Of a stretch of DNA of 3,063 bases, positions 1 to 3,063 are shown one piece after another. Location: the sequence record PZ049712.1; one strand, given 5' to 3'. The stretch is from a phage. Made by a program: the position numbers and the translations under genes. A model generated the notes under the pieces. That model was not told where the DNA came from. It made no database searches and was given only the letters and a program-made list of their open reading frames with translations. Every line of letters begins with the position of its first letter. Within the stretch, counting starts at the first letter, position 1.

Positions 1-1708
1 GCCGCACCGCCTCGATTCCAACCGTCGTGATGCGCCCTTGCAGTTGCTCGCGAACGATTAGCCGCACTGATCCGGCCATCAATTCGTCCCCCTGACGAGC
101 GCTGCCATCGAGTGCCTCCTTTATCAACTGATCCAGGGGTTGCCCCTTTTCCGCTGCCAGGTCGATACCGTAGGAATTCCACACATCTTCAACCTTGGTG
201 CTGCCCTTGAGCCGGAGTTCAAGGTTTGGCAGATCGGTTCTTGACGCTTCTACCGCCTGGGAAAAAACGCAGTCAACGAAAGGCTGATTGTTTGGCTTGA
301 GGACGACAAACAGATGATCACCGGCTTCAAGCCTGGTCGACCCTCGAGGCGGTATGACGGCCGACCCTCGCGTGATCATCGCCACGACTACGCCTTCGGG
401 CAACGCCATCTGCGAGAGCAAACGGCCGGCGGCTCTCGCATCGTTACCGAGCGTGTATTCGACGATTTCCGCGTCGACATCGTGCAGTGACGAGATTTCG
501 AGAGTCGCGGCGGGCGTCGCTGGTGGCTTCTCCGTCAGCCCCAGCTTGCGCGCGACGAGCGGGAGCGTAGAGCCCTGCACCGTCGCCGATAGCAGAACTA
601 CGAAGAACACAACATTGAAGATCAGGGGCGCATTAGGCAGTCCGAAAAGCAACGGGAAGATTGCCAGGATGATCGGCACCGAACCACGTAGGCCTACCCA
701 GGAAACGAGTGCCGTCTCCCTGAGATTGAAGCCAAAAAGCGCAAGCATTGGTGCGACGGCCAGCGGCCTGGCCAGCAACACCAGGACCAGTGCAATCACC
801 AACCCCTCGACCCACACATCGAGCAGCGAAACCGGATCGACGAGCAGGCCGAGGACTACGAACATGGTGATCTGGCTAAGCCATGCCAGGCCATCCATGA
901 ACAGGAAGGTGCTGCGCTGGAAAACGAATTTCTGGTTTCCGATCATCACGCCAGCGACGAAGATCGCCAGAAATCCGCTGCCGCCCAGATTCGCGGATAC
1001 TCCATAGGCGAGCAATCCGCCGGCCGCAACAAGCACCGGATACAAGCCGGTCGCGACCAGTTTTATCCTGCTCAGCAACCTGAGTATCGACCATCCGACA
1101 CCAAGCCCGACCAGCGCACCTATCCCCATCTGCATCAAAAACATCTGAAGCAGACCCCAGCCAAGCGGCATGCTGTTAACCAGCACCTCCAACAAGCCCA
1201 CCGTCAGAAAGATGGCCATGGGGTCGTTGGACGCGCTTTCAATCTCCAGCACCGACTTGAGCCGCTGATTGATGTGAATTCCGGCGTTTCGCAAGAGAGA
1301 AAATACGGCTGCAGCATCGGTCGAGCCGATGATCGCACCCAGCAACATGCCTTCCAGAACTGGAAGCTCAAGCATCCAGGCAGCTGCGAGCCCCGCGATT
1401 GCGGCCGTTGCGAGTACCCCAACTGTTGCCAGCAGAGACGCTGGCTTCCAAACCTTCCTTATGGACGAAACGGGCGTTTGCAGGCCGCCGTCAAAAAGGA
1501 TAAGCGCCAAAGCCAGGGTGCCGAGGGCATGCGCGGCAACGGCATTATCAAAAACGATCCCGCCGATACCGTTCTCACCTGCAAGCATGCCGGTGATCAG
1601 GAACAACACGAGCACCGGCAGCCCCAGACGGGCCGACAGTTTGCTGGAGAGCACACCGAACAGGATCAGTACTGCTGCCAGCAGCAATAGCTTGTCAATT
1701 GCAAACAC
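1..1708 (-). CDS. nhaP2: K+/H+ (monovalent cation:proton) antiporter, CPA1 family NhaP2/CvrA type, with C-terminal RCK_C (TrkA-C) domain; partial, 3' end beyond the window edge (569 codons present, no stop)
   Basis: Reverse-strand hand translation with codons starting at 1708, 1705, ... is open all the way to position 2. An in-frame TAA (plus 1718..1720) lies immediately upstream, so GTG at 1708..1706 is the first possible start. Product begins VFAIDKLLLLAAVLILFGVLSSKLSARLGLPVLVLFLITGMLAGENGIGGIVFDNAVAAHALGTLALALILFDGGLQTP, which closely parallels the E. coli NhaP2 N-terminus as I recall it. About 390 aa are hydrophobic multi-helix sequence (e.g. LIFNVVFFVVLLSATVQG), followed by a soluble segment LEISSLHDVDAEIVEYTLGNDARAAGRLLSQMALPEGVVVAMITRGSAVIPPRGSTRLEAGDHLFVVLKP typical of RCK_C. 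The plus-strand track ORFs here (354..1007, 1274..1690, 1329..1721) are Ser/Thr/Ala/Arg-rich antisense shadows. Family assignment is from memory, not a search. Confidence 0.85.
   Translation of the reverse strand, partial: MFAIDKLLLLAAVLILFGVLSSKLSARLGLPVLVLFLITGMLAGENGIGGIVFDNAVAAHALGTLALALILFDGGLQTPVSSIRKVWKPASLLATVGVLATAAIAGLAAAWMLELPVLEGMLLGAIIGSTDAAAVFSLLRNAGIHINQRLKSVLEIESASNDPMAIFLTVGLLEVLVNSMPLGWGLLQMFLMQMGIGALVGLGVGWSILRLLSRIKLVATGLYPVLVAAGGLLAYGVSANLGGSGFLAIFVAGVMIGNQKFVFQRSTFLFMDGLAWLSQITMFVVLGLLVDPVSLLDVWVEGLVIALVLVLLARPLAVAPMLALFGFNLRETALVSWVGLRGSVPIILAIFPLLFGLPNAPLIFNVVFFVVLLSATVQGSTLPLVARKLGLTEKPPATPAATLEISSLHDVDAEIVEYTLGNDARAAGRLLSQMALPEGVVVAMITRGSAVIPPRGSTRLEAGDHLFVVLKPNNQPFVDCVFSQAVEASRTDLPNLELRLKGSTKVEDVWNSYGIDLAAEKGQPLDQLIKEALDGSARQGDELMAGSVRLIVREQLQGRITTVGIEAVR
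270..510 (-). other. Segment of nhaP2 encoding the cytoplasmic RCK_C/TrkA-C regulatory domain (approx. residues 400-480)
   Basis: Translated residues about 400-480 (LEISSLHDVDAEIVEYTLGNDARAAGRLLSQMALPEGVVVAMITRGSAVIPPRGSTRLEAGDHLFVVLKPNNQ) follow the membrane domain and have the small mixed alpha/beta pattern of RCK_C domains, including the recurrent G-D-x-L-x-V motif context. Boundaries are approximate. Confidence 0.6.
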
Positions 1709-1714
1709 CGAAGG

Positions 1715-1719
1715 TCCTT
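1715..1719 (-). promoter_or_regulatory. Shine-Dalgarno (AAGGA) for nhaP2, 6-nt spacer to GTG start at 1708
   Basis: Minus-strand sequence reads ...TTAAGGACCTTCG GTG; AAGGA is the reverse complement of plus 1715..1719, the spacer CCTTCG is 1714..1709, and GTG is 1708..1706. Confidence 0.55.
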
Positions 1720-1818
1720 AATTATCTATGCACCGCATTTCTCGCGAGCAGACGCAACGTCGTGATAAGCCGGCGAGCCGACCACACCGCCGGATCAGGT
1801 CAGTTGTAGCTCAGGAGT

Positions 1819-1839
1819 AAAAAGCGCTCATTTTGAGCG
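1819..1839 (-). terminator. Weak intrinsic-terminator-like motif on the minus strand (5-6 bp stem, then C + T5)
   Basis: Minus-strand reading: CGCTC-AAAAT-GAGCG followed by CTTTTT. Stem is plus 1825..1829 pairing with 1835..1839; the T-run is the complement of plus A1819..A1823. The stem is short, so this is low confidence. It would stop minus-strand transcripts arriving from the pgpA side before they enter the nhaP2 promoter/leader. Confidence 0.2.
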
Positions 1840-1908
1840 ATGTTCGATACCTAGCGGTCGAATCGATTTCATGCCAGATGTTGCGAGGCCTTTCTCGCGC
1901 AATGCCAA

Positions 1909-2400
1909 ATGGTCACCCTAGAGGTTCGACAATTGATCTTTGAGCAAGTCGTTTTATTGATTGCCACTGGTTTCGGGCTGGGGTCTTTACCCTGGGTGCC
2001 TGGAACCTTCGGATCACTGCTGGGGATACCACTGGCGTGGTGGCTCTGGGGGCAGGCGCTGACAAGGCAACTGCTGGTCATCACCGCGCTGCTGGCGGTC
2101 GGCGTTCCGCTGTGTCACTGGGCCTCGCGTTGGCTTGGAGGCGGTGATGCCGCGCAGATCGTTGCCGACGAGTACTTCGCCTTTCCACTGGTTTTTTTGG
2201 GAGTGGCCACAACCCATCGATGGTGGCTACTAGGTGCGGGATTCGCACTGTATAGGCTTTTCGATATCACCAAACCGCCCCCCATTGATTTCGTCGAAAC
2301 CATTGGTGGTGGCTTGGGTATCGTTTTTGATGACGTGCTGGCCGCGCTATTGGCTTGGCTCGTTCTGCGTGGGACACAAGCAGTTTGGAGACGCCCGTAG
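1909..2400 (+). CDS. pgpA: Phosphatidylglycerophosphatase A (PgpA), complete
   Basis: Track ORF 1909..2400 (163 aa). It carries PgpA family signatures: LLIATGFGLGSLPWVPGTFGSL (the G-x-G-x-x-P-x-x-P-G-T-x-G-S motif), QIVADEYFAFPL, FALYRLFDITKPPPIDF and GGGLGIVFDDVLAALLAWLVL, which parallel E. coli PgpA segments AVGFGSGLSPIVPGTMGSL, FVIFRILDMWKPWPI and HGGMGIMIDDIVAG (recalled from memory). Stop TAG at 2398..2400. The start is ambiguous between ATG 1909 (no obvious SD) and in-frame TTG 1933, which is preceded by GAGGT at 1921..1925. Confidence 0.88.
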   Translation: MVTLEVRQLIFEQVVLLIATGFGLGSLPWVPGTFGSLLGIPLAWWLWGQALTRQLLVITALLAVGVPLCHWASRWLGGGDAAQIVADEYFAFPLVFLGVATTHRWWLLGAGFALYRLFDITKPPPIDFVETIGGGLGIVFDDVLAALLAWLVLRGTQAVWRRP

Positions 2401-2588
2401 CTCCAGCTCAAAGTCACCCCTACCGACAGTGATTCTAGGCCCAGTCACTCCGCTGCTGTCTGAAACGTTGCATAGGCCAAGATGCTCTCGGCTACAGGTC
2501 GACACCTCGTGTGCTGCTTTCTAGGACGACCCACTGGTCGGCTGTCATGAAACAGGTCCAACCTGCATCAGGTCAGTGTATACCGGTA

Positions 2589-2605
2589 GCGGCCGGTCGG
2601 GCCGC
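2589..2605 (+). other. Stable all-GC hairpin (6-bp stem, 5-nt loop) in the presumed ORF3 leader, 10 nt upstream of the SD
   Basis: GCGGCC-GGTCG-GGCCGC: 2589..2594 pairs with 2600..2605 as six G:C pairs, loop 2595..2599. No T-tract follows (next bases aggctctctggag), so it is not a canonical rho-independent terminator. Confidence 0.35.
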
Positions 2606-2614
2606 AGGCTCTCT

Positions 2615-2618
2615 GGAG
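2615..2618 (+). promoter_or_regulatory. Shine-Dalgarno (GGAG) for ORF3, 6-nt spacer to ATG 2625
   Basis: Sequence ...ctctGGAGatttcgATGtcg; GGAG is at 2615..2618 and ATG at 2625..2627. Confidence 0.55.
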
Positions 2619-2624
2619 ATTTCG

Positions 2625-3063
2625 ATGTCGAAAAAGGCACTGACCCCGCCCTCTGCGGCCTTGCATTTCAATCCATTACGCGTGCAACTCGAACGGCTAC
2701 GTAACGAGATGACGAGCGACGCCTGCCTGGCATCGCTGAAAAATATCCAGGTTCATGAGTGCTACAGGCAAAGCGCCGAGAACCTGCTGCAGTACCTATG
2801 TCTTCGTCGCCATGACCTGCGCGAGTTACAAGCGCAGCTTGCCGAGATCGGTTTGTCGTCCTTGGGCCGCGCCGAGGCGGCAATACTCGCAGCTGTGACA
2901 TCGGTGATGGGCGTGTTGCAGCGGCTCGAAGAGCCGAATACCCAAGAGCCCAAGGCCCCTGAGCGTGGTCTCCACGAGGGTGAGCGTCTATTGGCGGCTC
3001 ACGCCGACGCGCTGTTTGGAAAGGCCCGTGGCACGCGCTCGATTCGAATCATGGTGACCCTTC
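2625..3063 (+). CDS. Hypothetical protein, 5' partial ORF (146 codons in window, runs off the right edge); uncharacterised N-terminal region ending in a pyruvate-kinase-like beta-strand motif (TRSIRIMVTL). Possible PK-family enzyme with an N-terminal extension; unconfirmed
   Basis: Open frame from ATG 2625 to the window end, absent from the track because it has no stop in the window. GGAG at 2615..2618 sits 6 nt before ATG 2625. Translation: MSKKALTPPSAALHFNPLRVQLERLRNEMTSDACLASLKNIQVHECYRQSAENLLQYLCLRRHDLRELQAQLAEIGLSSLGRAEAAILAAVTSVMGVLQRLEEPNTQEPKAPERGLHEGERLLAAHADALFGKARGTRSIRIMVTL. Codon third positions are GC-biased like the neighbouring genes. The antisense track ORFs 2668..2901 and 2762..2953 are Arg-rich shadows. 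The final RIMVTL resembles the KIVCTLGP strand that opens pyruvate kinase barrels, but that is only about 6 residues of similarity. An in-frame upstream ATG at 2547 has no SD and would add a low-complexity Ala/Gly-rich 26-aa extension. Confidence 0.6.
   Translation, partial: MSKKALTPPSAALHFNPLRVQLERLRNEMTSDACLASLKNIQVHECYRQSAENLLQYLCLRRHDLRELQAQLAEIGLSSLGRAEAAILAAVTSVMGVLQRLEEPNTQEPKAPERGLHEGERLLAAHADALFGKARGTRSIRIMVTL

Follow-up and report, generated by a model that had tools for sequence, protein, structure and literature searches.

The right-hand end of the 3,063-nucleotide stretch of DNA analyzed here (the window) carries the beginning of an open reading frame, ORF3, and with it the question of what protein opens with some 140 unassigned residues and then enters a strand resembling that of pyruvate kinase (PK). 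An earlier note, made from the letters of the sequence, had cited two peptides of this frame (LLQYLCLRRHDLRELQ...VLQRL and TRSIRIMVTL), both of which are found in the window translation, and had placed the frame downstream of pgpA; the gene in question (1909-2400) is indeed PgpA-like, matching PF04608 at 116.8 bits. An in-frame TAG at 2436 precedes the frame of ORF3, which then stays open from position 2439 until the window ends at 3063. We read ORF3 as the beginning of a long-form PK gene, a paralogue of the NF011314/PRK14725 family and presumably of the Pyk2 type, in a bacterium of the Stutzerimonas stutzeri group, and assign this reading a probability of roughly 0.8. All features described below lie on the plus strand.

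The earlier note could assign the N-terminal region to no domain that it recognized. For Pfam and the PDB this judgment stands: the 146/172-aa fragment encoded in the window has no Pfam match at E<=1, and its matches to PDB sequences are those expected by chance (best E=0.33). It does not stand for the curated NCBIfam models, one of which covers the region. Residues 29-172 of the long translation match positions 3-147 of NF011314 (E=1.3e-33, 116.2 bits), the 614-position NCBIfam profile of PRK14725, which is named "pyruvate kinase" and has a curated cut-off of 642 bits.

The same locus was identified on three public contigs. One of these, L002, is a Logan assembly that is 99.6% identical to the window over positions 249-3061 and includes the stop codon; the others, L001 (98.5% identical, 41 gaps) and L003 (97.3%, 63 gaps), are noisy long-read assemblies. 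The window itself holds the N-terminal domain (N-domain) and one strand of the barrel, and the remainder of the gene was taken from L002: window positions 2625-3062 joined to L002 positions 2814-4253 encode a protein of 625 aa. This joined protein matches NF011314 at 825.5 bits over positions 3-612 of 614, well beyond the curated cut-off; the alignment is collinear from end to end, and no substantial difference sets the protein apart from the family. Extension of the ORF and a Pfam search of its full length had been proposed in the earlier note as the means of judging whether it encodes an N-terminally extended, possibly regulated PK variant. The joined protein supports that proposal: PF00224 follows RIMVTL and is its sole Pfam match (170.7 bits, cut-off 30 bits). 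There is no match to the PK_C domain PF02887 at E<=1 in the joined protein, and its score against the canonical PK equivalog TIGR01064 (210.2 bits) is under the 306.4-bit cut-off of that model.

The joined protein belongs to a large and already annotated set. A database search returned >7,900 homologues of 613-690 aa, all with PF00224 alone; nearly every named one is a "pyruvate kinase", and among the 120 matches listed one is a "hypothetical protein". P0121 is 96% identical to the joined protein over 625 aa, and P0123, a "pyruvate kinase" of Stutzerimonas stutzeri, is 100% identical. The gene is therefore already known, as a curated NCBIfam family, as public pyruvate kinase records and through a characterized member of the same layout, which is discussed below.

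The domains were placed on an AlphaFold2 model of P0121, with 117 homologues as input (pLDDT 89.4, pTM 0.85). The predicted order is a set of N-terminal helices, the PK barrel, a B domain insert, the barrel remainder, a final helix and a disordered tail. The first beta-strand of the PK TIM barrel, R-I-M-V-T-L (residues 141-146, window positions 3045-3062), is modeled as a strand at 141-145 and aligns with 'kivctlg', residues 5-11 of the Mycobacterium tuberculosis PK 5wrp. The earlier statement that canonical PKs start at this strand is borne out by Escherichia coli PykF, whose residue 3 falls at profile position 143. Solved PKs could be aligned with HMMER over residues 137-216 and 364-601, and between these two stretches the model places an all-beta B (lid) domain at 217-363, inserted after barrel strand 3. 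In the part of the protein that comes from L002 and P0121, the chain is predicted to end after the last barrel helix, with the final helix, a long one, at 584-608 followed by the disordered tail. When searched with Foldseek, the full model groups with PKs (E about 1e-27).

Catalytic residues were then mapped by alignment to PKM2 and the M. tuberculosis PK, using PKM2 numbering. R169/N171 correspond to PKM2 R73/N75, D203 to D113, R210 to R120, K421 in SDKGINFP to K207 in SKKGVNLP, K484/E486 to K270/E272, D515 to D296, and T547 to T328. These catalytic and ligand residues are invariant in 117 family members, with the exception of K421, which is nearly invariant (>=90%); the residues that bind metal, PEP and nucleotide are all conserved. 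Together, model and alignments show a PK-fold enzyme whose catalytic core is intact. The active site departs from that of canonical PKs in two respects. S77 is A173 in the long-form protein, and MLSGETAKG is MLN----KG, where S-G-E-T is reduced to N579 and G-E-T-A is deleted; M-L-N-K-G is invariant in the NF011314-type family. A third difference lies in the motif DLAGPKLR, in which Lys takes the place of the Glu of K+-dependent PKs; Lys at this position of GPKLR is reportedly (Oria-Hernandez et al. 2006) a signature of K+-independent PKs.

The long form thus shares with canonical PKs (PykF/PykA; PF00224 plus PF02887) a TIM-barrel A domain with an inserted B lid, the catalytic Lys, Glu, Asp, Arg and Thr residues, and the nucleotide-binding Lys. 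It differs in the size of the B domain, ~147 aa in place of ~100 aa, and in having Ala and Asn where canonical PKs keep S77 and S-G-E-T. Canonical PKs possess a C-terminal allosteric and tetramerization domain, whereas the long form has none and instead features a six-helix N-domain that canonical PKs lack. The effector site of ordinary PKs lies in the C domain, as does their C-C tetramer interface. Neither the absence of PK_C nor the enlarged B domain had been foreseen in the earlier note.

The characterized protein of this layout is Pyk2 of Corynebacterium glutamicum (NCgl2809, WP_011015482), the subject of a study by Chai et al. (2016; PMC5112673). Pyk2 has a 67.6-kDa subunit with a 120-aa N-terminal extension, an A domain formed by residues 128-213 and 346-606, and no C domain; it elutes at ~431 kDa in gel filtration, which was read as a hexamer. 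The enzyme requires Mn2+ and a monovalent cation, is activated by FBP and is inhibited by ATP (PMC5112673). Its layout is like that of the long form, which likewise comprises an N-extension of ~120-135 aa and an A domain that a large insert interrupts, with no C domain and a mass of ~67 kDa. Furthermore, the reverse complement of the Pyk2 qPCR primer WZ1168 encodes TLPTEA, which matches VTLP[ST]EAA, a family-specific motif located where the N-domain meets the barrel (VTLPSEAA in the long-form protein), and the primer-encoded peptide AHFIHPQ also fits a family motif; the comparison consists of these short peptides and the published domain boundaries. On these grounds Pyk2 is treated here as a presumed member of the NF011314 family. 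Two differences are apparent. The proteobacterial long-form proteins carry GPKLR, described above as a reported K+-independent signature, whereas Pyk2 is reported to need a monovalent cation. In addition, pyk2 and ldhA are co-transcribed in Corynebacterium (PMC5112673), whereas the window gene follows a pgpA-like gene and has no conserved neighbor.

By analogy with Pyk2 activity, the long-form enzyme would move phosphate from PEP to ADP to yield pyruvate and ATP, and is likely a slow, conditional back-up to canonical PykA/PykF. The kinetics of Pyk2 are nevertheless poor, and PK may for this reason not be its main physiological activity. The enzyme has a kcat of 4-8 per second, a specific activity of about 2 U/mg and an S0.5 for PEP of 4.6 mM, or 2.2 mM with FBP, which alters the kinetics only 1.4- to 2-fold (PMC5112673). 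It could be argued from these values that the family is PK-like but does not comprise physiological pyruvate kinases, its members being phosphotransferases that prefer another substrate or need an activator, with the invariant patch of the N-domain forming part of the substrate or activator site. Such a proposal is also favored by the constant loss of S-G-E-T and the Ala at S77 across the family, the TIGR01064 score of 210 bits vs a 306-bit cut-off, and an N-domain core that is conserved like the barrel and has many invariant polar residues. We consider it unlikely, since a strain deleted for both pyk1 and pyk2 grows on ribose once pyk2 is supplied, over-expression of pyk2 leads to higher PK activity, and the S0.5 of Pyk2 for ADP (0.33 mM) is a normal value (PMC5112673). 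The conservation of the metal, PEP and nucleotide ligand residues likewise argues for a PK, and across 80 genome loci no conserved neighbor indicates another pathway.

The N-domain lies within the window. It is family-specific, spans residues 1-136 (window positions 2625-3032), and is predicted to comprise six helices (15-29, 32-40, 45-61, 66-74, 84-102 and 116-131) in ~135 aa ahead of the PK (beta/alpha)8 barrel. Its conserved core, residues 45-102 (2757-2930), was examined in a full-length alignment of 117 sequences (A1) and a fragment alignment of 116 sequences (A2). The core motif reads S-A-x-N-L-L-x-Y-L-x-L-R-R-x-D-L-R-x-L-Q-x-x-L-x-x-x-G-L-S-S-L-G-R-x-E, and its part from N-L-L onward is present at window residues 53-84. 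Within the motif, N53, L54, Y57, R61, R66, Q69, L72, G76, S78, S79 and E84 are invariant in A1, and the same set is invariant in A2 save for L54 and R66, which are nearly so (>=90%). Measured as the majority fraction, mean conservation is 0.75 in the N-domain core vs 0.77 in the catalytic barrel.

Whether this domain is conserved as a fusion or also occurs separately had been raised in the earlier note. Searched with phmmer against a set of 1.84 billion representative proteins, residues 1-132 matched 1,792 clusters (50% identity clusters, E<=0.001). The match is N-terminal in the best 150 of these 1,792 clusters, and every match long enough to judge has PK motifs downstream at the expected spacing. 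Five short "hypothetical proteins" encoded on long contigs (P0012, P0014, P0063, P0066 and P0089) were considered as candidates for a stand-alone N-domain and rejected, as all enter the PK strand: in P0012, P0063 and P0089 the strand is followed by apparently out-of-frame sequence, and P0014 and P0066 end within the barrel. Because each continues into the PK strand, these five are truncated or frameshifted PK genes. Given the downstream PK motifs and the broken nature of the short proteins, the N-domain, as judged from these matches, occurs only in fusion to the long-form PK.

Structural comparisons yielded no relative for the domain. Modeled alone, the N-domain reaches a pLDDT of 84.6, and a Foldseek search with this model returned nothing at E<=0.001 and no PDB fold relative. 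A PDB search with the profile of the N-domain alignment retrieved only the barrel start and, weakly, the N-termini of trypanosomatid PKs, which match the last helix. In these PKs, residues 4-20 of Leishmania PK, just before barrel strand 1, align weakly to profile positions 122-141, corresponding to the last helix and the linker. The N-terminal segment of eukaryotic and trypanosomatid PKs is ~20-40 aa, without a counterpart of the core at 45-102, and these enzymes keep the C domain, whereas the long form does not. No solved structure containing the N-domain was found by PDB sequence, profile or fold searches, and our literature search returned no structural paper on the long-form PK and no paper under the name PRK14725.

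Because the C domain, and with it the tetramer interface and effector site, is missing from the long form, the N-domain probably supplies oligomerization, allosteric control, or both. Its invariant Arg/Ser-rich patch (R61, R62, R66, G-L-S-S-L-G-R at 76-82, and E84) is a candidate interface or site for a phosphorylated effector. As a weak hint, residues 75-83 form a loop when the whole protein is modeled and a helix when the domain is modeled in isolation, a switch that could be explained by contact with other parts of the protein. A bolder reading is that the N-domain is a new fold that replaces the C domain and drives a non-tetrameric (hexameric) assembly, that its patch binds an effector or substrate, and that the family has a role other than glycolytic PK. 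Taken as a whole this is unlikely; if true, the weak PK activity of Pyk2 would be a side reaction or that of an un-activated state.

The long-form PK family itself is widespread. We detected it in at least seven phyla, among groups that include Gamma-, Beta- and Alphaproteobacteria, Bacteroidota, Acidobacteriota, Planctomycetota, Verrucomicrobiota and Gemmatimonadota. Its Actinomycetota members include those of Mycobacterium, Mycolicibacterium, Kocuria and Microbacterium, and span Mycobacteriales as well as other orders. Gene neighborhoods were surveyed at 80 genome loci, where no neighboring gene family occurs in >5 loci. The large neighbor clusters that emerged from this survey were rejected, as they consist of ORFs that lie within the PK gene itself, antisense or in another frame. 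P0135, P0143 and P0122 each have a context of their own, and even a 94%-identical copy has other neighbors. The long-form PK gene appears to stand alone, and its surroundings offer no clue to the role of the N-domain.

Variation of gene context even among 94%-identical copies is also what might be seen if the locus were a decaying pseudogene. Three further observations could be read in this way: the near-identical L002 carries a 1-nt deletion within the PK gene at window position 2944, the homologue in S. stutzeri KOS6 is broken into two overlapping ORFs, and transposase fragments lie near the gene in L001 and L003. Decay is nevertheless very improbable. The frame in the window is intact, including at position 2944, and collinear with the NF011314 profile, and close relatives have intact copies of 623-632 aa. 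Sequencing error may account for the indels elsewhere, given the noise of the long-read assemblies L001 and L003 (41-63 gaps). Moreover, pN/pS is 0.32-0.39 in comparison with two relatives; this ratio and the 1,792 clusters matched by the N-domain also speak against a chance ORF. Window positions 2625-3063 hold the start of a real gene under purifying selection.

This segment comprises the first 146 codons and one base of the 625-codon long-form PK gene and corresponds to NF011314 positions 3-147. Sequence comparison places the translation start at ATG 2625, which the earlier note had favored over an in-frame ATG at 2547. The strong ribosome-binding site described there is readily seen as a Shine-Dalgarno GGAG at 2615-2618, 6 nt 5' of ATG 2625, and the block CTCTGGAGA at this site is unchanged in L086, L006 and L002. 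The NF011314 alignment begins 1-2 residues after Met-2625, and the nearest full-length homologues start with MSKKA, MSNKA or MSEKA, equivalent to ATG 2625. In two relatives, L086 (94% protein identity) and L006 (84%), the upstream ATG is kept, and it is out of frame because 2 extra nt lie between the two ATGs; it there starts a separate 14-codon ORF closed by TAG. A start at ATG 2547, giving a 172-aa N-terminal region in the window, is therefore improbable in the extreme: it is in frame with the ORF here, with no intervening stop, but it has no Shine-Dalgarno before it, and the profile alignment, the homologue N-termini and the 2-nt offset in relatives all speak against it. Positions 2547-2624 are accordingly annotated as an upstream in-frame ATG and conserved 5' leader outside the PK coding sequence. 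A scan of 2300-2700 for promoters and terminators found none, the RNA fold of the leader is not significant (z = -1.3), an Rfam search of the window gave no match at E<=1, and a megablast search of plasmids gave no match.

For annotation, this is a routine call of an NF011314 pyruvate kinase starting at ATG 2625. There is also a practical consequence, in that at least one public record starts inside the N-domain: P0123 has its start placed at residue 55 and so lacks half of the domain. Overall, in a family with >7,900 homologues the classic allosteric C domain has given way to a helical domain at the N-terminus, for which there is neither a Pfam model nor a solved structure, and the single biochemical study describes an unusually slow, hexameric, FBP-responsive enzyme. 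The N-domain bears on how a PK can be regulated without a C domain, and on whether such paralogues truly act as a glycolytic back-up.

The long-form pyruvate kinase (PK) gene lies in a variable region. Within two near-identical, noisy long-read contigs, L001 (2302-2784) and L003 (800-4300), transposase fragments matching HTH_Tnp_1, DDE_Tnp_ISL3, and DDE_Tnp_1 are found a few kb from the PK locus; in L086 (4038-5445), the PK copy (94% identical at the protein level) is instead flanked by a gene of the PEP_mutase family, together with an APH fragment and eutCBH. On the Pseudomonas caspiana contig L005, a polyphosphate kinase 2 (PPK2) gene (7905-8822) follows the PK family member on the opposite strand, in convergent orientation, a pairing that did not recur in the 80-locus neighbor analysis.

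In the window itself, the gene upstream of PK (1909-2400, + strand) encodes a PgpA-like protein of 163 residues, which passed the Pfam PF04608 threshold with 116.8 bits. For the NCBIfam PgpA equivalog, its score of 92.5 bits falls short of the 226-bit cut-off. It may be a divergent second copy rather than the housekeeping phosphatidylglycerophosphatase A. Divergent from this gene is a cation/proton antiporter gene (2-1717, - strand; PF00999 Na_H_Exchanger, 192 bits), whose product features a C-terminal TrkA_C regulatory domain and whose 3' end lies beyond the left window edge.

The PK gene is preceded by a leader of ~120 nt (window 2505-2624), to which L086 5880-6000 and L006 2880-3000 correspond (L006 being the Stutzerimonas stutzeri KOS6 locus). 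Comparison of the window with L086 and L006 revealed that this leader is kept among S. stutzeri-group relatives, while the genes further upstream vary. A search of the window against Rfam returned no match at E<=1, and the predicted RNA fold of the leader was not significant (z = -1.3). The relatives feature a 14-codon upstream ORF in the leader, encoding MKQLHPTLGQFHYR or MKRVHPAVGQSHYR before a stop codon, the first codon of which is the ATG equivalent to window 2547. Between this ATG and the PK start, the window and L002, a public contig 99.6% identical to it, possess 2 nt fewer than the relatives, and ATG 2547 is therefore joined in frame to the PK ORF in these two sequences.

The PK reading frame is broken in two relatives. 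L002 carries a 1-nt deletion at 2696 (window 2944), within the linker of the family-specific N-terminal domain, and the KOS6 copy is split into two ORFs (3001-3789 and 3689-4900) that overlap at L006 3689-3789. These breaks may reflect sequencing errors or gene decay. The public S. stutzeri pyruvate kinase entry P0123 (571 residues, 100% identical) begins at PK residue 55 (MQYLCL...), corresponding to window 2787, where codon 55 is CTG (Leu); the conserved N-terminal domain is thus halved by the public annotation.
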